A DNA stretch of 27,435 nt from a virus. Within the stretch, counting starts at the first letter, position 1. Every line of letters starts with the position of its first letter. The notes beneath the pieces are model-generated. The model saw only the letters and a program-made list of their open reading frames with translations. It was not told where the DNA came from and made no database searches. The translations under genes and the position numbers were made by a program. Shown in pieces: positions 230 through 22,211 of this stretch. The DNA lies in the UHGV virus genome UHGV-0266262; one strand, given 5' to 3'.

Positions 230-2728
230 TTATAATTTGCATTCATTGTCAAAAAGTTTTTTTTCAATCGCTGCAAGACGTGACTCTATTTTTTCGATTC
301 TTCTACGCAAATAAGCAGACTCAAGCCATAAGCACTGGTCAGCACGGATACCCCACCTATTTCCGGCCTTGCGTACCAGAGTTCGCTCTTCTGTTTCGTA
401 TTCTTCTTCCTTCTCAATTTCGACACCATCCACAACTTCAGTAATCGTCCTGACCGCCATCACTGGCTCGTATTTATCATCCCATTCATCGTAACAGAGA
501 AGGCCAAACCGGGTCCCATCAATCCCATGAGCGAGGAAAGCATCTCGCACCTGTTGTGCTATGACACCAAAATGCCAGCGGGCACCATCTCCCTTTTCCC
601 TGATAGCCTCAAGCCAGCGAAAAGCTACGATCCTGATATCTCCCCATGCATCCAAAATTGCATCACCTTCATAACCAGGGGACATATTCAGACTGAGTTC
701 ACTCGTTGTTAGCGGGTCGCTTTTTTCCCTACCATCTGAGGTGTTTATTGAGCCTGAAACAGCATAAATCTGAGTTGGCCTGTTATCTGGTACACCAACA
801 CTGTAAGAATTATCCAGATAAGGATGCCAGTGACCATTTGGACTTACTTTCCATCTCCAGACATTATTACTTCCTAGATGTAAATCAGCCCCATTCGCAG
901 CCATTAATGCTACATTAGAGGTACTCATATACATCTGAAAATAACCAACGCCTTTTCTCTGCCATTCATAAAGCAAACCGGTTCCTTGCTCGTTGTTGAA
1001 CTTTAGTGCTTTTATAGGTGAGTTTTGTTCCCAGGTTGTATTATCTGAATAAATTACATGAGGAACCGCCTCTGGATTATCAGAGATACATATTTCTTTA
1101 GATGGTAGAGATAGCGTTCTTTTATCTCCTGCACCAAGCGCATAAATCAGAATGGTACGTCTGGTTGCCCCCATAACATCAGAATGTTCAGATACTATTG
1201 TTACCGATGGATAAAGAACGCCATCGTAATCAACAAAATGCATCCCTTCTGACTCGCGGAAGGTAGGGGTAGAGCCAATAATTCTAGGTAAATCCGTATC
1301 ACCCAAATTAGAAATGGCTTTCTGCACATCATTCCCCAACAGATCACAACTTGATAAATATTGAGTCTGCCCAAACTTAGTATTTCCACAATACATATAC
1401 AGATGTGCTCCATCAGAACAAAATCCATTAAGTGATGTTGTTTCATCACCACCGACTTGTGAAAGTTGAAGAGTAAACTCATGAGTACACAGGGCGGAAT
1501 AATCACCGGGTTTATCAAAAATATCAGTGGAAAATACACGAAACGTTTGCTTATTGTATTCGCCATTGTCGGTGAAACGGATAATCATCCATTTTCCGTC
1601 TAATGTAATAGTCGGAGTAGTTGAACTACCCGCTGTACGATTTCCTTCTACAACCCTAAACATTTCAGGAGAATCTATTTCCCCCTCGGAGTTGCTCCTC
1701 CAGGAAAATCTAACAACCCCATGTGAACCACCTACAGAAAAATCAAAGTCAGTATGGGCAGTAGAGCCTGCCGGTGTATCTGGTGCTGTAGTCCATAACT
1801 TAATCGTATTATCTATATTCTGTACCGCTATTCCCTGATGACCCAGCCTGTCCTCAGGAAGCATAAAATCAGAAGATGTATTTTTAATTTTTGAATCAGC
1901 AGAATATTTATTCCAGACAGAAACAGTAGTAGGGTTTCCATCTATTTCTGTATTGTGATTGGAATAATAAGCTCTGCTTACAGGATCATATGCAAAAGTT
2001 TGCAATGTTCTTATCTGTCCGCGACCATTAGCAATTGGTATAAACCGTATAGCGGCATTAGACTCATGTCCAATGGCATTAATGTCCCATGCAGGTCGCT
2101 TGCTTGTAACTAGTTCACCATTAACAGGAATGACTTTCCCTCCAACCAACCATTTCCCGTTAATATAGGTATTCCTGAAAAACGTTCTGGAGGTAAAATA
2201 AGTTTTACCTCGCATATCAACAACCATAGACGTAACATAATCTTCCAGTTGTTCAAATGCCTGTGTATCATCCGCAATGCCATCACCTTTTGCTCCCCAG
2301 CCACGTGGATCTGTTTCATCACGCCATCGTGCAATCTGCAATTCGGAATATTTTTTAGCACCATCCGGGTCTTCTAATTGCTGCCGTAGCTGATCCGGGT
2401 CATACTTCAGTACGTTAGGAAAATAGAACTGCTGCGCTCCATACGCATCATAAACAGCCATAGAATGACCTTGCACAGTTACGAACTTGGAAATCTGTCC
2501 GTTGTATACCGGGTATCCAGCAGCATTGATAACGATTGGCTGTGGCACCTGAACATAAGTACCATCTTCTCGTTCCAGATATACTGGAATCTGGTTTTCT
2601 GGATTTAGCGGATCTGTGTCAATCTTACCGATATAAATTTTTCCATTTGCTACGGTTTTAAAAGAACTAGCCATTGTGAAGAGTTGCGACGGCATACCTA
2701 TCACAACATTTGGAGTTATATTAGGCAT
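230..2728 (-). CDS. Tailspike protein: P22-like N-terminal head-binding domain, divergent central receptor-binding domain, C-terminal intramolecular chaperone (peptidase S74-like) domain
   Basis: ORF 230..2821; first ~120 aa after MPNITPNVV closely resemble my recollection of the P22/Sf6 tailspike N-terminus ([22 protein letters not shown] ... [13 protein letters not shown] ... NVLKYDPDQ). C-terminal ~160 aa carries the S74 chaperone pattern (FRW ... HFGVIAQQV ... YDEW ... [21 protein letters not shown]) preceded by TSDGREK (Ser..Lys spacing). Start set at ATG 2728 (AGGA 9 nt upstream); ATG 2737 or 2821 are possible alternatives. Confidence 0.85.
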
Positions 2729-3068
2729 ATTAGTCATCCTGTTTGAAGATTTAGATATTGAAGAAAACGGAATGACTGCAGACAAAGATGCAATTGTTTT
2801 GAAAAATAACCTTCTATTCATTTAAAAACCATGCAACATGAACAAAACGATTATTTTACAATACTCAAGAATCTTGATCAACAGGCATATTATTTATGCG
2901 CTTAATGCGTCACTTACAAAAATAAAAACAAGTACTACCTTTATTCCTATCGTCCATGATTTTTATTTTCAAACATTATTAAATAACAATTCCTATTTAT
3001 AATATCTGTCATTTAATTTGCTCCAAATACAAGGAATCGCCGCAGTGATTCATTATCAATCAAAAAAT

Positions 3069-3085
3069 ACGACCACCGTGGTATT
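3069..3085. promoter_or_regulatory. Candidate Mnt operator (ACCAC-c-GTGGT palindrome) in the mnt / tailspike divergent control region
   Basis: Palindrome ACCACcGTGGT at 3072-3082, about 65 bp upstream of the mnt start, in a 326-bp AT-rich intergenic region. Resembles the CCACGGTGG core I recall for the P22 mnt operator (recollection, not verified). Confidence 0.4.
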
Positions 3086-3147
3086 ATTGAGGATGCAACC
3101 AGCAGATAATAAGATGCCGATCCACTCACAAGAGCGAGGCATCAAGA

Positions 3148-3399
3148 ATGGGAAGAGATGACCCGCAATTTAATCTGCGGCTACCTTACGAATTAAAGGA
3201 AAAACTAAAACAGCGAGCCAAATCCAATGGCTGCTCTCTTAATTCAGAATTAGTTCAGATAGTGACTGATGCTGTATCAAGGCCATCCAAAATTTCAGGC
3301 TATCGAGACGATGCAGAACGCATCGCTGATGAGCAGTCCGAACTTGTTAAGAAGATGGTGTTTGATACGCTGAAGGATTTGTACAAAAAAACCACCTGA
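3148..3399 (+). CDS. mnt: Mnt repressor (ribbon-helix-helix, Arc/Mnt family)
   Basis: 83 aa; near-identical over the C-terminal half to P22 Mnt as I recall it (GYRDDAERIADEQSELVKKMVFDTLKDLYKKTT) and similar at the N-terminus (MGRDDPQFNLRLPYELKEKLKQRA). GAGG 8 nt upstream of ATG. Confidence 0.9.
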   Translation: MGRDDPQFNLRLPYELKEKLKQRAKSNGCSLNSELVQIVTDAVSRPSKISGYRDDAERIADEQSELVKKMVFDTLKDLYKKTT

Positions 3400-3498
3400 C
3401 GGTGGGTTAATTTTTGCATTTACTTGGGCCATATTGACTACTTATAAAATGAGATCAATATTTAATCGCCCAATAACGGGTGTATGTTGAGGTATATC

Positions 3499-3678
3499 AT
3501 GGCGAAAAAACCAGGTGAAAACACAGGAAAAAACGGCGGAATATACCAAGAAGTTGGCCCACGCGGCGGTAAGAAAGACAATTTTGCCACCGTCAAGGAC
3601 AACGAAAGGCTTCCACCAACAACAAAGCCAGGTCATGTCTGGGTATTGGATAAGCGAACTCCAGACAGCAAAAAGTAA
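3499..3678 (+). CDS. Small conserved hypothetical protein (59 aa), YjzC-like motif; possibly the counterpart of the small ORF between sieA and mnt in P22
   Basis: ATG 3499 with GAGGT 6 nt upstream. Sequence MAKKPGENTGKNGGIYQEVGPRGGKKDNFATVKDNERLPPTTKPGHVWVL has the KPGE..G.Y.E.GP.G pattern of the YjzC-like small-protein family (recollection). Confidence 0.6.
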   Translation: MAKKPGENTGKNGGIYQEVGPRGGKKDNFATVKDNERLPPTTKPGHVWVLDKRTPDSKK

Positions 3679-3683
3679 TAATC

Positions 3684-3705
3684 AAGCCGGTCACTCCGGC
3701 TTTTT
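3684..3705 (+). terminator. Rho-independent terminator for the mnt / 59-aa transcript (possibly bidirectional)
   Basis: AGCCGG-tcact-CCGGCT stem-loop followed by TTTTT on the plus strand; overlaps the last codons of the convergent minus-strand gene. Confidence 0.55.
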
Positions 3706-4056
3706 GATATGTCGCTCGCAGAACTCAACAAGCCTGCTCATTAAGTAGCAGTAAGTCTCGTTGGCTCTTCCTGGTTCAACATCAACACCTACCCTTGAGC
3801 AGATATCGAATGCCATGTGAGCGCACTCATGGGCAATAGTAGATAGTTTGCCATTGAACACGCCTATCACATGCAAAACACCATTCTCGCTACTCATTGT
3901 ATGAGACGCTCCGTTGGCGTCCGAGTCATGCACGTCAACGCCAAGTTTTTGATGCAGGCGTTGCCATTCTGGAAAGTCTCTACAAAACACAATTGTACCG
4001 CTCTCAAAGAGCGGAACGAGCATCTTTGGTACGTTTCCAATGTTAACTTTTTTCAT
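3691..4056 (-). CDS. Hypothetical protein with HExxH motif (possible small zinc metallopeptidase-like protein)
   Basis: 121-aa ORF; motif [14 protein letters not shown] 5 nt upstream of ATG 4056. No family assignment possible from memory. Confidence 0.5.
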
Positions 4057-4086
4057 GGTATCCTGCGCAAAACTAAGGAGGTTGGT

Positions 4087-4581
4087 GTGTCTGATTCTAT
4101 GAGTTACGCTGTGCTAGTTGCCGCAACTCTATTTCTGGGGATAGGGTTGCAGATTGCGTGGTTCTTTTTTTCTAGTTTTATTAAACGTAAAAGAATTGAA
4201 TCAAGGATATCTGAGATTTCTATTGCTATAGGGAAAAATGCTGAAAATCCAGAGAATGAGGCCTGCGCACTGAATTACCTTAAAGAAAAGTTTTCCCCTG
4301 AAAAATTTGAAAACAGAATTACTGATGCTCTTGGATTGGTAATATCAGTAATTCATATGCCACTAAGTTTGCTGATAACAGTGTGGTACTTCGCCATGAT
4401 CGCCGGAAGAATATTTGGTTTCATGAATATAGAGCCTGTAGTTCTTTGGGTTCCAATGATACTGCAATTGTTGTTAAGCTTTGCTATCTTTATTTTTTCT
4501 GTTTTTATAAAAATTGTCTTCGGAAGATACCCCGGAGAAGCGAAGGGATTTAATAAAGAATTCATAAAAACTATAAAATAA
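4087..4581 (+). CDS. AT-rich polytopic inner-membrane protein; candidate superinfection-exclusion protein by position (P22 sieA locus)
   Basis: Three predicted TM helices ([76 protein letters not shown]). Strong SD AAGGAGG 4075-4081 with GTG 4087 (ATG 4099 alternative). Markedly lower GC than flanking genes; opposite strand to the late operon. Confidence 0.55.
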
Positions 4582-4603
4582 ATGCCGTCCTTGGCTTACA
4601 GTG

Positions 4604-6445
4604 CTACTGCCGGGTAGCTTCGTTAACTAAGAGCGGGCGCACGGCAGTAGCCGCCTGATTTAGCGCTCTTTCATAAGCTGGCGTTCCAGCTTTAGTGTTT
4701 GCCAGACGTAAGAGCGCATTCCTTGCTGCTTTGGATTCATACAAGCGCATCATTGCACCGAAACCAGCCTCAAGCCCCATTGATACGCCAAGAGTCGTAG
4801 TTGCGCCAATCGTCCTTATCCTGTTGGCTTGCGATTGCCCCGTCTGAGTTACTACATTTGCGGTGTCTGATCTTGCTGTTTGCTGTAGAACTTCATGAAG
4901 AGCATCAAGTTCTTTCATGTGCTTTCCAGAAAAAATAGTGTTGTAAATTTCACCGCCTGACTGAGATTTCAGCTTATTAACTTCCGTGATGAACTTGGCT
5001 GGAGAGTCACCGGCCTTTTCCGCTATTTTGCTGACGTAAGCTGCACGCATAGCATCTTTCCCTTTATCATCCAATGCGCTCCAGATTCGTTTCACGTCAG
5101 ATGGTTTTCTGCTTAATACAACAGTATTTATAAGTTCAGGACTGGCTTCACTGCTTGCCTTGTTGAGCTTGTTAGCAATGTTTTTATTAAGCACCTTATT
5201 ATAAACGTTTGCATAATCGGAATTTGCTTTAAGGTATTTTGCTGCGTCTGATGCACCGAGGTTTTTTGCAACTGCGTTACGAAGGTCTTTTGACATTGCA
5301 TTCTCTACCATATTGGTAGCTGCTTTTGCCTGGTTGGGGAAGACCATAGCATCCCCCTGAACATTAGATCTAAATGCTGTTCTGTGCTGACGTAGGAGAT
5401 CAAACGTAACATCCAAATCAGTTGCAGGGTTTGCTAATTCTTCACGTAGGTTACGCAAGGATGTAAGCAGGCTTTGATTGGCAGACGTCCCAAGCCGTTC
5501 CTGTCTTGCGATCGCTGTATTCAGAGCATTCATGGTATTTGTGGTATCAACTGCGGCATTACCCATTTTATTGGTGACGTCATTGATAACAGCGCCAGCG
5601 GCCTCCTTCCGTCCCCTTAACGTGGTGGTCAGAGATTTCACCACATCATCAGGGTTGTACTCACCAAAACGGTCAAAATAATTGCTTACCAGCTTACTAC
5701 GCGTTGCATATTGCTCCGCTCGCTTTGAGCCTGTCCCGAGCAAAGCCCCCTCAGCATCCTGAGTAAGTCCGCGAGTGAAAGCATTTTTCGGCGGGATAAC
5801 ATCAGATGTCATTGGTGTCACGCCCATCGATTCTGAGGTGGCAATTTTTTTCGCTACTTCTGGCGCGATATCGCCTTTTATAGCAGTTATTCCACGCCCT
5901 ATTCCCTTTGCTGCTGCGGAAAGAACACCCTGAGCGGCAAGGTTAACTCCGGCGTTTATGGCTGCATTTTGCGCGAAATCGCCTTTCTGGTTCGCGGCTT
6001 CTGCCAGTGATCCAATAGCCATGCTTCCTGCCGTTCCAACTCCTGGAACTAAATACCCGCCAATTGTTTCTCCAGCTTGAGCGTAGGGGTCTGTCGGTCG
6101 ATCGACTGGACGATAGACATCATCCAAAACCTTGGGGCCACCAAGCCCCTGACTGATTGCATTAATCAGACTTGCGCCGCCCTGTAATACGTCAAATGGT
6201 ATGTTTACCAGACCACGACCAGCCTGTTCTGCAATTTGCCCTGCACTTTGACCACCAGTGAGCCAATCGCCAGCTTGTTGCATCAATGATGGTTCTTCCC
6301 GTGTTGGTGCATTATTGGCCTGATTAACTATTTGTTGCTGAACAGCCTGACCAGCAAAATACTCATCAATGGCGGTGCCAATATCTTCGGTGCTCGTACC
6401 ATCAGGAAAGGTAAATGTCTTACCGTTTGCAGTTACTTTCATCAT
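4604..6445 (-). CDS. Ejection (DNA-transfer) protein, P22 gp16-like
   Basis: 613 aa (P22 gp16 about 609 aa); last of three consecutive ejection-protein genes in P22 gene order; ATGA overlap with the upstream gene. Confidence 0.75.
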
Positions 6446-13087: not shown

Positions 13088-13981
13088 TTATTTTTTTGCC
13101 TTTTTAGCGGCGAAATACGGCGTCCAGTCACCAGTTTCCAGCGCCTTGGCTTTCAGTTTGTCGAGGTTATTGATTACTGCGCCGTTGCTCCCCTTAACTG
13201 TCGGGGTTGTGGCTGCCGTGGTTTTTGCTTTTGGCATGATTCTGGCCTTCGATTCGATACGTTCCAGCAGACGACCAATTGCTACGGGGTTGGTAGCTTC
13301 TGCCAGTTGCTTGCGCAGTTCAGCGTTGCGACCGAGCGCCAGAACAACGATTTCCGGCTTCTCTGACTCAAACAGGATCGCGTTTTGTGTCTCGATGGGA
13401 ATTTCCTCGAGTACGGCCTGCTCAGCTTCCTGATAGCCAGGAACTTTGAGAGCCTTAACACGTTGCTGATATTTGGATAATCGCTCTTGATAGGCAGCCT
13501 GAAGCTCCTGCTCCTTCTGCTTGCGAGCCATCTCCTGTTGCTGGTACTTTCCGTTATCCTCTGCCCACTTAGCCATGCGTTGCTGATAGATTTCTTCATC
13601 GAAACCGATGTCCTCATCATCCAGTTTTGGCATTCGCGGTGGTTGAGTGATTACCGGCTGCTGCTCGACGGGTTTCTGAGACTGACGCATCAGCTCTTTC
13701 AGCTCGCGGTCTTTCTCTTTAATCGTCTTGCGCAGGTGTTTTACCAGCCCATGCTCTGCGCTATCTTCACTGGTTGGCGAATCCAGCTTTTCGTCACCAA
13801 AGTAGAATTCCTGTTCTGATTCGTCGTCATCAGTTTCAGTAGCTTCCTCTGCATCATTGCCGGAGGACTCACTGCCATCTTCTGTTTCGACTTCTTCAGC
13901 CAGTTCGACATCATCAGGAATCTGCTCTGATGTATCGGTTTCGATTTCAACTTCTGGTGTGTTTTCTGCCATCTGGTCCAT
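13088..13981 (-). CDS. Scaffolding protein (P22 gp8-like)
   Basis: 297 aa; acidic N-terminus, Gln/Glu/Lys-rich coiled-coil, basic C-terminus; located between portal and coat. Confidence 0.8.
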   Translation of the reverse strand: MDQMAENTPEVEIETDTSEQIPDDVELAEEVETEDGSESSGNDAEEATETDDDESEQEFYFGDEKLDSPTSEDSAEHGLVKHLRKTIKEKDRELKELMRQSQKPVEQQPVITQPPRMPKLDDEDIGFDEEIYQQRMAKWAEDNGKYQQQEMARKQKEQELQAAYQERLSKYQQRVKALKVPGYQEAEQAVLEEIPIETQNAILFESEKPEIVVLALGRNAELRKQLAEATNPVAIGRLLERIESKARIMPKAKTTAATTPTVKGSNGAVINNLDKLKAKALETGDWTPYFAAKKAKK

Positions 13982-14071
13982 TTGTTACCCCTGTTTACTC
14001 GATGTTCAGCCCATCGGAAGGCAATAGGGTGCCAGGCCTCATAAAGACAGCCATTGCACGTTATGGGTTAA

Positions 14072-16270
14072 TTACTGCTGTGGTTGTTGCTGAGTTGATT
14101 TTTGCAGGATGCTGCTGATGTCCATGCGCTGCGCATGGCCCTGTGCCTGACTTTTCAGGACAAGCTCTGCATCAGCACGGGCATTATCTCCTTGCTGTTG
14201 CTGGAACTGTCCGAGCAGTTTCAGCGCCTCACGGATATCAGATTTTTGCTGGCTATCGGCAGATGCGAGGATTTTCACAACATTTGCCGCAGCAACCTGA
14301 GCATCCGTCTGTGCCTGGAATGCTTTAACCTGAATGGCTGCTTGTTCGTTCTGCGCTTTCTGCAATTCAGCCTGACCAGCAAGAAGCTGACCTTGCGCAG
14401 CAACCATAGCCGGATCTGGCTGACTGGCCTGTTGTTGTTTCGCCTGCTCAACCATCTGCTGTTCTTCTGGTGTTCTCGGCTTGATAACTCCAGACAGAAG
14501 CAACTGATTGCGGTTGTATTCTTTAAGGTCGTCCATCCCTTCGCCGTCCATATTGTCGAGAATCATCGACGATACAAGGTCGTGCTTCGGCGTTCCTGGT
14601 GGGATAAGTGCCAGCATGGAAAGTAACGACTTAACCGTTGCATCACGGCGAGTAGCGAACGACTGACCGACATCGACAGTCACTTCATAGTTACCCTGCG
14701 AAAGGTCGTTAAGCGCGATAACCTGCCCTGTCTGACGGTCAACCACTTCACCAGTCATCAGCGCCACGTCATCGCTGCCGTCCTCATTCACGATACGCAT
14801 CGGCGTATCACTGCCATAGACCTCACGCGCCATAGAAAGCCACACAACGCCAGCGCGACGCATGGATTTAGCCATGTTGTCCATGTAGATATAGGACTGC
14901 GTGTCCATCCGGTTAAAGATGCTATCAACGGTATCGGTGGCGACGTTGCTCGGCATGTTCTCAAGCTGCGAAGCCCCGGTAATTTGCTGAATAGCCGTTC
15001 CGGTGTACTGCAATAACCCGGCAAGAGCAGGAGGCATTTGTGTCGGAGGTGTATAACTGCTGACCTGAGCCTGCGCAGTAATATCTCCGTTTTTGTTTTT
15101 CAGACTTACCATCGGCAGGAACGCCGGGCGCTTTTTGTTGCGCTCCGCCCAATGATTGGCGAGAGGACCAGGAATCATGTCAACATCAACTACAGGAATG
15201 CCATCACCGCCAGCCTGAGTCGCGTTATCTGCAATCATGGAAACCATCAGGTTCTCAAGACGCTGTGCATCCATCGCTTTTGCTGCGTGTCCTTCGATTC
15301 GCTCCTGATTATCAACAAATGAGCGACGCCCATATACCGGGATGAGTGGAATATGTTCGCCCGGAATACGCTTCGGTTCTTCCAGCCATTCAGCGCCAGA
15401 CAGAAGGCCGCAATAAACGCGGCGTTTCTTCACCGTTCGCTCACCAATCAGTTCGAATGCGCCATCGGTTAGCTCGTCGACAATATCTTTGATTTGATCT
15501 TCATCATAGATTGCCGTTTCTCCGCTAACAGGGTTGCGCCACGCCGTGAGCTTCACCTTCTCTATGCGGACTTCGTAGTAACGTCCAACATAGATGGCAT
15601 CTGGCGTTGACCAGTCATATTGAGTGCCAGTGTCATCACGAGAAAGGCTTGCCGCGATGGAATCAGGGTATTCAGCCTCGAACGCTTTAGGCGTCATGGA
15701 GAACATTTCCATAGCCCACATAGCATCAGAGCGGTCATATTGCTTGCTGTCCTGATCAAAGAAGACGCATGTCGCTGGGTCGTAAACAGGAAGAAGGCTG
15801 ATGCGGCGCTGCTCGTTACTCGGATCCATTTCATCTTCGTAATCGGCACACATGCGGAAACAACCGAATCCACCCGTTACGGCATCATCAAATGCGTTAT
15901 CACACGCTTCGCCACCGGATGTTTCCTGATAGTCAGCGCGGAATTTGCCGTTCATTTTTTCGGCTAAAGCTTCCGATGCCTTGTCATCCTTCGGCCTGAA
16001 TTTAACGCTGATGCGATTCTGTCGATACTCGCCAATGATGCGATCACATTCACGGGAAATCTTATTCAGTTCAAAACGCGGATAATGCTCAAACCTGCCT
16101 TCATCAAATGAGTAACCAGCGTTTGTGCTGCCTTCCCACTGTGCGCCGGACACCCGGACGAAACGTTGAGCCTCAATAATCTGCTCACGCATATCCTGCG
16201 TTGCTGACCAGGCATTATCAAAGTTGCACAGCACCTTGCGATGCCAGTCAGTCATCTTTTTTTCTGCCAT
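14072..16270 (-). CDS. Portal protein (P22 gp1-like)
   Basis: 732 aa; motifs KRRRVY, GEHIPLIPVYG, PEEQQ, DPAMVAAQGQLLAGQAELQKAQNEQ match P22 portal as recalled. Confidence 0.9.
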   Translation of the reverse strand: MAEKKMTDWHRKVLCNFDNAWSATQDMREQIIEAQRFVRVSGAQWEGSTNAGYSFDEGRFEHYPRFELNKISRECDRIIGEYRQNRISVKFRPKDDKASEALAEKMNGKFRADYQETSGGEACDNAFDDAVTGGFGCFRMCADYEDEMDPSNEQRRISLLPVYDPATCVFFDQDSKQYDRSDAMWAMEMFSMTPKAFEAEYPDSIAASLSRDDTGTQYDWSTPDAIYVGRYYEVRIEKVKLTAWRNPVSGETAIYDEDQIKDIVDELTDGAFELIGERTVKKRRVYCGLLSGAEWLEEPKRIPGEHIPLIPVYGRRSFVDNQERIEGHAAKAMDAQRLENLMVSMIADNATQAGGDGIPVVDVDMIPGPLANHWAERNKKRPAFLPMVSLKNKNGDITAQAQVSSYTPPTQMPPALAGLLQYTGTAIQQITGASQLENMPSNVATDTVDSIFNRMDTQSYIYMDNMAKSMRRAGVVWLSMAREVYGSDTPMRIVNEDGSDDVALMTGEVVDRQTGQVIALNDLSQGNYEVTVDVGQSFATRRDATVKSLLSMLALIPPGTPKHDLVSSMILDNMDGEGMDDLKEYNRNQLLLSGVIKPRTPEEQQMVEQAKQQQASQPDPAMVAAQGQLLAGQAELQKAQNEQAAIQVKAFQAQTDAQVAAANVVKILASADSQQKSDIREALKLLGQFQQQQGDNARADAELVLKSQAQGHAQRMDISSILQKSTQQQPQQ

Positions 16271-16271
16271 A

Positions 16272-17687
16272 TCAACCTACACCACAAGGAATTGAGTAAC
16301 TGGAATAGTCGGGTTGCGCAGCCGACTCCGGGCAATGCATACACATCATCAACGCATCAGCCAGGTTAGGAGATGGAATACCGAGCTTCTGCTTCATTTC
16401 GACCTTAGTCATTAGCTCCAGCTTCCCGTTGTTATTGAATTTGCGCTGAATCTGCGTCAATTCTGCAAACAGCTTCTCAAGCATCTTCTCGCCTATCGCT
16501 TCTTTGTCGAAGCTCAGCATGTCGTCGGGGTCTGCATACTCACCGTGAACAACCGCCCGATATGTCAGATACAGCCTGTCAGCCAGTGCGTAATAGAATT
16601 GCGCTCGCTTATTGCGGAAAACATCGCCAATAGTGCGAACGTTGTCTCCCTGCACGACTTCATCAGCCCATGCTCCGGCCTGATAAGGCGCATCTTCATC
16701 GAATGGCGATTCGCTGCCCTTGAACATCGTGGCGGTAATTTTCTTGCCGGAGAATGCTTCCGTTGTCTGTCTGCGTAGCCCTGCACCGACACCATCGCCA
16801 TCCCACAGGTAATGGTCAGCGCAGTCTTCAATCGCCAGCGAAGTAGCCCAGTCAGCACCCTCGTTGATGTCCATCAGCAGACCTTCGGCAATGCGCTTAA
16901 CTACCGAACCGTGGCGCGATGCATAACCTTTAGCATCCGGTCCTGTATCTGACGGGTCATGCGCAGAGACAACAGCGCCTTTCGCCTTCCATCCGAGTTT
17001 CTTGTGCGCATCGGTTGCGGCTTCAAGCCATTCACGTTTGATAATTGCCATATCACTTGCGCTCACTGGCTCACCAAGCCAGATGTGACGATACAGTGTC
17101 GGATTTCTGCGTTTGCACTCTTCCATCTCCAGACGGAGAACTTCAGGAAAGTGCGGGTTGTCGGTGTAGTTCACCGTCAGCAGGCAAATATCATCGGGAG
17201 GATTTACGACGAACCGCTGATAGGTATCGTCGAGTATGTTTTTCGGGTTGAAGCTTACCCATATTTCAGAGAACGGCTTACGGATGGTTGGTATCAGGAT
17301 ATCCCACGATTCCTTCGTTACCGCTTCCGCTTCTTCCACCCAGCAGATATCAATGCCTTCGAGCGATTTAATCTTCGTCGGGTTGTTTTTGATGCCGTAG
17401 AACATGAATTCAGCATTCGTTCCGAGATGACGAATCATGGAACGCTGAATTTCAAACTCGGCCGAATACCCTTCCCGCTCTATGGTGTCTTCAAGCAACC
17501 GGATTACCGAATCGCTGATACTGTTTTGCAGTTCACGAGCACAGAGGATGCGCACAGGCTGCCGACGCGCCGCTTCAACAAGCAGCCTCGCAATTGCCCA
17601 TGACTTACCGCTACCTCGACCGCCTTTGGCGACTTTGTAGCGATGCGCCTCAATGAACGGTTCAAAGATAGGATTAATCGAGGTCAT
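16272..17687 (-). CDS. Terminase large subunit (Sf6 gp2-like)
   Basis: 471 aa; Walker A KGGRGSGKS near the N-terminus; ATGA overlap with terS. Confidence 0.85.
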   Translation of the reverse strand: MTSINPIFEPFIEAHRYKVAKGGRGSGKSWAIARLLVEAARRQPVRILCARELQNSISDSVIRLLEDTIEREGYSAEFEIQRSMIRHLGTNAEFMFYGIKNNPTKIKSLEGIDICWVEEAEAVTKESWDILIPTIRKPFSEIWVSFNPKNILDDTYQRFVVNPPDDICLLTVNYTDNPHFPEVLRLEMEECKRRNPTLYRHIWLGEPVSASDMAIIKREWLEAATDAHKKLGWKAKGAVVSAHDPSDTGPDAKGYASRHGSVVKRIAEGLLMDINEGADWATSLAIEDCADHYLWDGDGVGAGLRRQTTEAFSGKKITATMFKGSESPFDEDAPYQAGAWADEVVQGDNVRTIGDVFRNKRAQFYYALADRLYLTYRAVVHGEYADPDDMLSFDKEAIGEKMLEKLFAELTQIQRKFNNNGKLELMTKVEMKQKLGIPSPNLADALMMCMHCPESAAQPDYSSYSIPCGVG

Positions 17688-18211
17688 TTTCCGAATAGAG
17701 TGCTCATCGGTGATGTTTCAATCTGGATTGCGCCGCCGTCTTTGCCGGTTAGCTCATGAGAAGCTTGTTCTTTAAATGCCTGAACGGAAACATGCTTACC
17801 AAGAAGTTCGAGGTTTTTGACCTTATCTGGCCATTTGATTTTCTTCAGAAGTGCGGCACTATCTGCGGATACCATCTCCACAACATCCATTCCTGATAGC
17901 GTTGTGCGCCATACCTTAGGCCAGTCTTTAATGGGCTTTAGCTCACCGTTTTGCAGGAGAATGTCAAGCACATCCATCTGGTCGATTTCAATAAGGCGAT
18001 TAAGTACATATTCTGCATTAATACCAACAAGATCATTGCGTTGCGCTTTCAGTTCGGCGATTCTTAACTTGATGTCAGGTTTTGACAGGTTTTCGGATGC
18101 GGTACGGTTAGCTGTCTTTGCGCTGTACCCCGCCCGAATAGCCGCTTGCGTGGCGTTTAAATCGATGAGGTACTCGCGACAGAACATCTCTTGTTTGTCG
18201 GTGAGTGCCAT
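17684..18211 (-). CDS. Terminase small subunit (Sf6 gp1-like)
   Basis: 175 aa; C-terminus ELTGKDGGAIQIETSPMSTLFGK matches the Sf6 small terminase C-terminus as recalled; N-terminal HTH-like region. Confidence 0.8.
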   Translation of the reverse strand: MALTDKQEMFCREYLIDLNATQAAIRAGYSAKTANRTASENLSKPDIKLRIAELKAQRNDLVGINAEYVLNRLIEIDQMDVLDILLQNGELKPIKDWPKVWRTTLSGMDVVEMVSADSAALLKKIKWPDKVKNLELLGKHVSVQAFKEQASHELTGKDGGAIQIETSPMSTLFGK

Positions 18212-18859: not shown

Positions 18860-21028
<2,169 letters not shown>

Positions 21029-21279: not shown

Positions 21280-21717
21280 TCATCGAAGGCATTGTGTCCT
21301 GATGTATTCCTGCAGGTAGTTAACCTGCGCGGTTATCTTGTCGATTCCACTTCGGAGACGGTAATAATTGAGTTCAGCATCTGCTGTAAGTCCGGGGCTT
21401 TCTCCATCGCCCATGCTGCTGGCTCCGGTCGTTGACTTTGCACAGGTGGCGGCGACTTGCAGGCGCTTACGCCCAGCAGAAACATCAGCACGGAGACTTT
21501 CGATAGTCGCGTTAGCATCAGCAAGCTCCTTTGTATATCTGGCATCGAGTTCTGCTACATCACGTTGACGCTTCTGCATGTCAGCGATAATGGATGCGGC
21601 CTTATCGCGCTGCTCTTTGTAGGCGATGGCGTTATCACGGTAATGATTAACAGCCCATGACAGGCAGACGATGATGCAGATAACCAGATCGGAGATAATC
21701 GCAGTTACTCTGCTCAT
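21280..21717 (-). CDS. Rz: Spanin inner-membrane subunit Rz
   Basis: N-terminal TM helix then coiled-coil periplasmic domain; directly after the endolysin; Rz1 embedded in the +1 frame. Start set at ATG 21717 (alternative 21729). Confidence 0.8.
21333..21518 (-). CDS. Rz1: Spanin outer-membrane lipoprotein Rz1 (embedded in Rz)
   Basis: [20 protein letters not shown] lipobox then Pro-rich region ([16 protein letters not shown]); AAGGAG upstream of ATG 21518. Confidence 0.75.
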
Positions 21718-22211
21718 TGCTGCCCCCACAAACAGACTTCACGCTCAATCTCACGGCGAGTCATCAGCCCTTTCCATTGCTTACCGCCAGCATATGTCCA
21801 GCGACGTAGCTGATCACATGCGCCTTTGATATCGCCCTGGTTTATTTTGCGAAGAAGCGTCGATGTTCTGAAATTGCCAGCACCCACGTTGTAGACGAAC
21901 GAGTAAAGAGCGCCGCGCGTTGTTTCCGGTATATCGACTTTAATGTACGGGTTAATTTGTCTGGCGACCGTGGCAAGGTCTTTATTCAGGAGGGCTTTGC
22001 ATTCTGCTTCGGTATACGTTTTACCGAGCATGATGTCTTTTCCGGTGTGTCCGTGACATACGGTCCATACACCAACAATATCTTTGTATGGTATGTAGCT
22101 GACACCCTCCAGACCATCGTTACCACTTGGGCCAGTGATTAGCACTGATGCTATAGCAATAGCCCCGCCACCAATAGCAGCTGCAACAGCTTTTCGTAAT
22201 GATGGAGGCAT
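21714..22211 (-). CDS. R: SAR endolysin (lysozyme with N-terminal signal-anchor-release domain), phage 21 R-like
   Basis: 165 aa; Gly/Ala-rich weak TM at N-terminus ([20 protein letters not shown]), lysozyme-like body; ATGA overlap with the holin stop. Confidence 0.85.

Follow-up and report, generated by a model that had tools for sequence, protein, structure and literature searches.

A probable ant-less variant of the P22 sieA/immI block in a P22-like prophage, with a gene for a predicted zincin-like protein

Does the short accessory region between the tailspike gene and the last ejection-protein gene of a P22-like prophage encode a new anti-phage module, or is it a known block of phage P22? 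The question was raised by an earlier note on the virus genome UHGV-0266262, a stretch of 27,435 nucleotides (nt; hereafter called the window in its entirety), in which an orphan mnt gene, a YjzC-like small protein, a convergent HExxH protein, and an AT-rich membrane protein were described, and the last two were proposed to form an uncharacterised superinfection-exclusion or anti-phage module. The window shows, in reverse orientation, the late region of a P22-like (Lederbergvirus-type) prophage, and the order of the genes concerned is gene 16, sieA, hkcC, orf59a, mnt, and tailspike. We conclude with high confidence that the region is the known P22 accessory block that comprises sieA and the immI region and is called the "ant moron", here in an ant-less variant, and that it contains no new anti-phage island. 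The host of the block is an E. coli-type P22-like prophage. The ant moron and its variability among P22-like phages have been described previously (Villafane et al. 2008, PMC2629481), with ten types distinguished among sixteen genomes in that survey.

The four open reading frames (ORFs) between the tailspike gene and ejection gene 16 were real and lay where they had been described. A megablast search of positions 2700-4700 against phage genomes showed 95.6% identity between P22 DNA and window positions 3301-4699, and the P22 annotation beneath this match comprised sieA, orf59a, mnt, and gene 16. The sieA promoter of the P22 reference annotation (BK000583) was transferred to the window via a constant 201-nt offset between the P22 locus and the window; in that record, the mnt terminator follows orf59a, and the sieA promoter is directly upstream of sieA. 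At the protein level, the identities to P22 were 92.7, 99.2, 96.6, and 74.7% for SieA, HkcC, Orf59a, and Mnt, respectively. Mnt is thus the least conserved of the four block proteins, which reverses the previous statement that only mnt was clearly retained, although the presence of mnt itself was correctly recognised. The description of the region as a low-GC (guanine plus cytosine) patch held for sieA (34-39% over 4100-4600) and for the spacer next to the tailspike gene (26-30%), whereas hkcC had a GC content of 45-47%, and the structural genes had 48-51%. PADLOC returned no family for any of the four block proteins at E <= 1, an NCBIfam search yielded nothing useful, and no Rfam match was found in positions 2600-4700, hence no sar-like RNA.

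The membrane protein is encoded by sieA (4087..4581, + strand, with a GTG start and an ATG at 4099), which ends 22 bp ahead of the gene 16 stop. Both its abutment on the ejection gene and its three hydrophobic segments, located by hydropathy at residues ~5-32, 78-111, and 115-146, agreed with the earlier description. The protein matched PHROG 7745 ("superinfection exclusion SieA-like") with an E-value of 1.4e-105, and its 92.7% identity to P22 SieA spanned 164 amino acids (aa). Residues 145-157 carry the published motif FxRYPxEAxxFNK, which is common to the SieA types (PMC10883804). P22 SieA resides in the inner membrane and has three predicted transmembrane segments (Leavitt et al. 2024, PMC10883804). 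Three features of type A were present, namely, homology to P22 SieA, the three segments together with the motif, and placement of the gene between those corresponding to genes 16 and 9. On this homology, the membrane protein is assigned to the type A superinfection exclusion protein SieA of the inner membrane, which is already characterised. The guess that it acts as a superinfection-exclusion factor was therefore right, but the label "uncharacterised" was not: the profile search placed the protein in a characterised family, which the earlier note had itself named as a finding against its proposal.

Was SieA likely to require the HExxH protein as a partner, as the earlier note had suggested? 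P22 sieA blocks DNA injection by P22-like phages when inserted with no more than 85 bp of upstream and 22 bp of downstream sequence, escape mutations map to gp16 and gp20, and the gene 16 ejection protein is among the published targets of SieA (PMC10883804). By analogy with the 93%-identical P22 protein, for which this has been shown, SieA in the inner membrane of the lysogen would block the injection of P22-like DNA by interfering with the gp16/gp20 conduit, and it would work alone. The equivalent of the P22 sieA promoter, transferred from BK000583 and a candidate by sequence, lies at 4026..4056 (+ strand), inside the first hkcC codons on the opposite strand, and the spacer between hkcC and sieA showed 96.7% identity to P22.

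A new, uncharacterised exclusion or anti-phage module that would unite the membrane and HExxH proteins on a low-GC island of foreign origin is highly improbable. The position of the locus at a recognised hotspot for exclusion genes and morons (PMC2629481), the AT-richness of sieA, and the divergent arrangement of hkcC and sieA, 30 bp apart, would all suit such a module. However, the membrane protein is a P22-type SieA for which the 85-bp upstream segment is enough, and all four proteins were blank in PADLOC. In a survey of 80 IMG/VR loci carrying near-identical copies of hkcC (98% or higher), SieA was found at only 12, with HkcB (8 loci) or nothing at the site in others, and hkcC occurs without sieA in HK620 and SE1. 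Relatives of HkcC are also found in virulent phages. The exclusion function belongs to SieA alone.

What, then, is the HExxH protein? Its gene, hkcC (3691..4056, - strand), encodes 121 aa with the signature HExxH-x19-E, a predicted small zincin-like metallopeptidase, and is read in the direction of the late operon, convergent with orf59a as had been described. It lacks a coding sequence (CDS) annotation in the P22 records BK000583, NC_002371, and AB426868 (positions 13861-14223 in BK000583 and NC_002371), although hkcC is named as a P22 gene in the literature (PMC2629481). The missing annotation, together with the overlap with the annotated sieA promoter and terminator, could be taken to mean that the 121 codons are no gene but a frame left open by chance, antisense to the promoter of sieA and the terminator of mnt. 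This is scarcely credible given the size and conservation of the family: an exhaustive profile search with HkcC retrieved at least 546 clusters at 50% identity (E <= 0.001), mostly of 110-130 aa, and HExxH was retained in 141 of 145 representatives. In an alignment of 125 family members, extending down to ~23% identity, only G49, H76, E77, H80, and E100 were invariant. Compared with P22, hkcC carried five synonymous changes and one non-synonymous change, indicating purifying selection, and HK620, SE1, and RefSeq E. coli genomes carry a CDS annotation for the gene. The AlphaFold2 (AF2) model had a predicted local distance difference test score (pLDDT) of 89, and 26 viral structural neighbours were found in BFVD at E <= 0.001. 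As a separate observation, sieA showed 9 synonymous and 12 non-synonymous codon differences from P22 over window positions 4087-4581; on these small numbers, the SieA protein may evolve faster than HkcC.

The AF2 model consists of beta-strands, a helix (28-37), a beta-hairpin (49-66), and two further helices (71-88 and 100-116). The HExxH motif lies in helix 71-88, and E100 opens helix 100-116, 20 residues past H80. Close relatives (43-78% identity) retain the pattern STxAHECxHxAFDxC...GV...G.ANET.C.L. We infer a small, zinc-dependent, peptidase-like protein expressed from the late-operon strand, in which H76, H80, and E100 would coordinate the metal and E77 would act as catalytic base. In a phmmer search against the PDB, the HExxH and Glu motifs were in register with those of neutral protease and thermolysin, but with an E-value of 0.09; the best PDB matches of the family profile were myroilysin and BMP1/tolloid (E = 0.1-0.4), which aligned on HExxH and are suggestive only. 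Foldseek of the model against the PDB gave nothing significant, hence no solved zincin fold was matched. Most of the BFVD neighbours were uncharacterised, and a few were named SprT-like, Metalloprotease, or IrrE. The neighbours and relatives included virulent phages, such as the N4-like phage phCDa.

Searches with family members gave matches to several named families. SprT-like matches were weak and seen in 18 of the 125 members (best E = 1e-4), and single members matched DUF5700, DUF4344, M48, or reprolysin_2. HkcC of the window itself had no Pfam match to SprT-like (PF10263) or Peptidase_M78 (PF06114), the longer relatives carried no informative extra domains, and no second HkcC paralogue was present in the window. 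HkcC also matched PHROG 1365 (unknown function; 1.7e-39), and our literature search found no functional study of either hkcC or orf59a. Overall, a peptidase role for HkcC is well motivated, but unproven.

The orientation of hkcC is informative with respect to SieA. The gene is on the late-operon strand in both P22 and HK620, and this direction is opposite to that of sieA. Relatives with 38-40% identity in epsilon34, L, ST64T, and mEp044 are likewise on the late strand, flanked by the lysis genes and the terminase gene. A role for HkcC in SieA exclusion is disfavoured by the late-strand orientation, by the occurrence in virulent phages, and by the loose association with SieA.

The convergent neighbour of hkcC is orf59a (3499..3678, + strand; hkcD in HK620), which encodes a 59-aa YjzC-family protein of unknown function. 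It matched PHROG 3202 (unknown function) with an E-value of 2.8e-31. The earlier assignment as YjzC-like stood in part: tblastn showed 42.6% identity to a Clostridium phage phiCT9441A protein annotated as YjzC family, and the core KPG...G.Y.EVGPRGG...LPPT...W was common to Orf59a and the translation of that protein, but the score against the Pfam YjzC family (PF14168) was 20.8 bits (E = 4.8e-4), under the cutoff of 25. The two genes share a bidirectional terminator hairpin at 3684..3702 (both strands), detected in a terminator scan, which corresponds to the annotated mnt terminator of P22 and to the bidirectional terminator tORF59A of HK620. Orf59a appears to be a small YjzC-family protein inherited with hkcC.

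The convergent pair is not confined to podoviruses. It was found in siphovirus prophages of Klebsiella oxytoca and Rosenbergiella and in metagenomes, where HkcC and Orf59a (as a 59-aa gene) were 43-63 and 61-81% identical, respectively. There, the pair is part of siphovirus tail operons, flanked by the tail tube/chaperone genes on one side and by the tape-measure gene on the other. The stops of the convergent pair are 12-30 bp apart, with 13-30 bp in these operons. The pair also occurs in Proteus, Xenorhabdus, and Serratia, adjoining an Arc-like repressor and Bro-N or KilA-N proteins. Among the P22-like loci, 69 of 80 retained both genes, and 11 had hkcC without orf59a. The reverse dependence was also considered: the idea that orf59a always needs HkcC was rejected, as HkcC was present at only three of the 32 species-level loci that carry an Orf59a-like gene and missing from the other 29. 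A divergent pair of XRE and Peptidase_M78 (ImmA/IrrE) genes was located within 1 kb of 9-10 of these 32 Orf59a-like genes, and a LexA-like S24 protein was encoded near two of them. Separately, the Orf59a/YjzC-like gene of Pseudomonas, Sphingopyxis, Acinetobacter, and others was observed in a short operon encoding small proteins (DUF3892 or one of 84 aa), which is divergent from an XRE helix-turn-helix and Peptidase_M78 (ImmA/IrrE) pair.

These neighbourhoods raise the possibility that hkcC and orf59a work together as a functional two-gene cassette within the secondary-immunity (antirepressor) circuitry, unrelated to exclusion. Orf59a would then be produced from the strand opposite the late operon, like mnt and sieA in the lysogen, and the putative late-strand zincin HkcC would process or antagonise Orf59a, or cleave a repressor as ImmA/IrrE does. 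The conservation of the convergent pair across phage types and its retention in most P22-like loci agree with this, as do HK620, which retains both genes despite decayed mnt and ant, and the neighbouring Arc-like repressors and antirepressor-type genes (Bro-N, KilA-N, or Rha). The XRE and Peptidase_M78 pairs near Orf59a-like genes of other Proteobacteria point in the same direction, and hhalign aligned the HkcC family with these M78 proteins at 45% probability and E = 2e-4, over 51 N-terminal columns ending at HExxH. Against it stand the 29 Orf59a-like loci without HkcC and the 11 hkcC loci without orf59a, as well as the distant HkcC relatives (epsilon34 gene 70, L orf129, and mEp044) without a 59-aa partner and the Clostridium phage YjzC gene without an HExxH neighbour. 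Moreover, co-inheritance of a small block with a common terminator explains the adjacency of the two genes equally well. We regard a functional cassette of this kind as conceivable but doubtful.

A still more specific form can be proposed only speculatively, and we consider it rather unlikely: hkcC would encode a minimal ImmA/IrrE-like zinc protease that forms, with Orf59a, a mobile two-gene cassette moving between the late operons of podovirus- and siphovirus-type temperate phages, alongside antirepressor modules. If this were true, the classic P22 immI region would hold an overlooked proteolytic component, which might turn off a protein encoded on the strand opposite the late operon, or a repressor, once late transcription begins. 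Short of this, HkcC may be a minimal relative of ImmA/IrrE, and the tendency of YjzC-like genes to accompany repressor and zincin modules of mobile elements is offered as a lead rather than as a result.

The remaining immI gene is mnt (3148..3399, + strand), which encodes an 83-aa ribbon-helix-helix repressor with an Mnt C-terminal domain (Pfam Arc, PF03869, 7.8e-20; Repressor_Mnt, PF11423, 2.3e-18). Its divergence from P22 is uneven: at the DNA level, the half encoding the N-terminus was 62% identical, as against 94% for the half encoding the C-terminus. The N-terminal recognition strand, PQFNLRL, resembles that of Arc (PQFNLRW), unlike that of P22 Mnt (PHFNFRM), and P22 Arc matched the N-terminus of the window Mnt at 40% identity. 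Neither arc, ant, nor sar was found in the window, where the P22 queries reached only the Mnt N-terminus by tblastn and blastn. In work by Youderian and Sauer, residue 6 of Mnt reportedly sets operator specificity.

A candidate Mnt operator was located at 3069..3085 (ACGACCAC-C-GTGGTATT; core palindrome 3072-3082), which aligns with the annotated mnt operator of P22, AGGTCCAC-N-GTGGACCT. We infer that Mnt binds this palindrome, beside its own promoter, and that the leftward ant promoter repressed in P22 would have degenerated here; the positions equivalent to the hexamers of the strong P22 ant promoter are indeed degenerate. Because of this degeneration, the window Mnt is probably autoregulatory only, or residual, a view also taken of the orphan mnt of phage L (PMC8022706). 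Nothing contradicts the identification of the locus as the P22 sieA/immI region. Two points nevertheless weigh against our reading of it, both at this site: the operator is less symmetric than in the relatives, which have a perfect palindrome (AGACCAC-N-GTGGTCT), and no promoter regulated by the operator was found in a consensus scan.

The region had been described as starting at 2822, but the segment 2822-3147 holds no convincing gene. This follows from the start of the tailspike gene (230..2728, - strand; longest ORF, 230-2821), which we place at ATG 2728 because the Pfam Head_binding profile (8.4e-61) aligns its positions 1-113 to residues 1-113 of the product from that start. An AGGA lies 8 nt upstream of this ATG, and the protein begins with MPNITPNVV. 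The longest ORF, used by the Prokaryotic Genome Annotation Pipeline (PGAP) and by the JEP4 annotators, has 31 additional N-terminal codons (2729-2821), and this extension is probably an annotation artefact; the long N-terminus was rejected as part of the gene, as Head_binding starts with the ATG 2728 product. With the start at ATG 2728, segment 2822-3147 comprises a recombination scar and the mnt control region. A 54-aa ORF at 2838-3002 was also rejected as a gene, having no family match.

The AT-rich spacer itself (2729..3000; 26-30% GC, no convincing gene) shared 97.8% identity with the sequence lying upstream of the Escherichia phage JEP4 tailspike gene and 94-97% with E. coli prophages, and it is foreign DNA travelling with the replacement tailspike. 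Next to it, a vestigial 5' end of a P22-type tailspike gene was recognised at 3001..3023 (- strand), consisting of GGAG followed by ATGACAGATATT, which codes for MTDI. SE1 and E. coli FDAARGOS_1251 have, at the aligned position, the beginning of an intact tailspike gene, whereas in the window the remnant opens a 21-codon ORF running into ~270 bp of AT-rich DNA. An exchange of the tailspike module has left the ribosome-binding site and four codons of the old tailspike gene and brought in the ~270 bp of AT-rich DNA. As a side observation, the new tailspike combines a P22-type head-binding domain with a different receptor-binding part, which matched a 5-bladed beta-propeller receptor-binding platform weakly, and a C-terminal S74 intramolecular chaperone domain (Peptidase_S74, 6.5e-11). 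With this different receptor-binding part and the S74 domain, the tailspike is therefore not a P22-type O-antigen endorhamnosidase.

On the other side of the block, the gene 16 ejection protein (4604..6445, - strand) was 75.8% identical to P22 gp16 and is followed by genes 20 and 7. Further along the window, an element of the IS21 insertion sequence family was observed at 18946-20747 (+ strand), where it interrupts the late operon and is flanked by the small terminase gene (17684-18211, - strand) and the Rz lysis gene (21280-21729, - strand). It encodes IstA (rve domain, 340 aa) and an IstB broken into two ORFs (19965-20252 and 20304-20747). This insertion may have made the prophage defective or may exert polar effects on late transcription.

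The locus matched 440 of 5426 complete E. coli genomes. Of the 80 IMG/VR loci, 24 had mnt beside the tailspike gene, approximately 25 had arc-ant, and five showed the exact order of the window. As originally posed, the locus matters little, being a rediscovery of the P22 sieA/immI region. Its value for annotation lies in hkcC, which is missing from the P22 reference records, and in the automatically assigned tailspike start, which is 31 codons too long. The remaining interest is in HkcC and Orf59a, two uncharacterised proteins of a model phage; for these, we provide a motif-based prediction and a conserved pair. As a lead to function, HkcC belongs to a sizeable phage family with an HExxH-x19-E signature and without a solved structural relative.

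Compared with known metallopeptidases, HkcC has the same spacing as the thermolysin-type gluzincins (H80 to E100 in HkcC, H146 to E166 in thermolysin). With ImmA/IrrE and the SprT-like proteins, it has in common an HExxH helix placed after a helix and a beta-hairpin, and a conserved Glu downstream, but it differs in its length of just 121 residues and in lacking a C-terminal domain. The metal ligands of IrrE are His, His, and Glu, and SprT-like proteins use a His as the third ligand. The HkcC family alignment contains no invariant third His, unlike the SprT-like proteins, and in contrast to ImmA/IrrE, there is no adjacent XRE repressor, the neighbouring repressor being the ribbon-helix-helix protein Mnt.

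Among phages, HK620 carries the corresponding genes hkcB-hkcC-hkcD, with HkcC and Orf59a (HkcD) 99.2 and 96.6% identical, respectively, and the same bidirectional terminator, but it has hkcB where the window has sieA, and only remnants of mnt and ant. In SE1, ST160, JEP4, Gally, and the E. coli P22-like prophages, mnt lies directly beside the tailspike gene without arc and ant, as in the window. These phages and prophages also have the Mnt variant and operator type of the window, with DNA identities of 87.8% to SE1 and 98% to the E. coli prophages. No sieA is present in SE1. The distance from mnt to the start of the tailspike gene is 135 bp in SE1 and E. coli FDAARGOS_1251, whereas the window has 270 bp of AT-rich DNA and the new tailspike gene. 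Compared with P22, the window lacks arc, sar, and ant, its mnt has a diverged N-terminal half and operator, its tailspike has been exchanged together with an AT-rich leader, and its type A SieA carries 12 amino-acid changes. The position, order, and strands of sieA, hkcC, orf59a, and mnt are all as in P22, as are the terminator and the sieA promoter region, with 95.6% identity over 1.4 kb.

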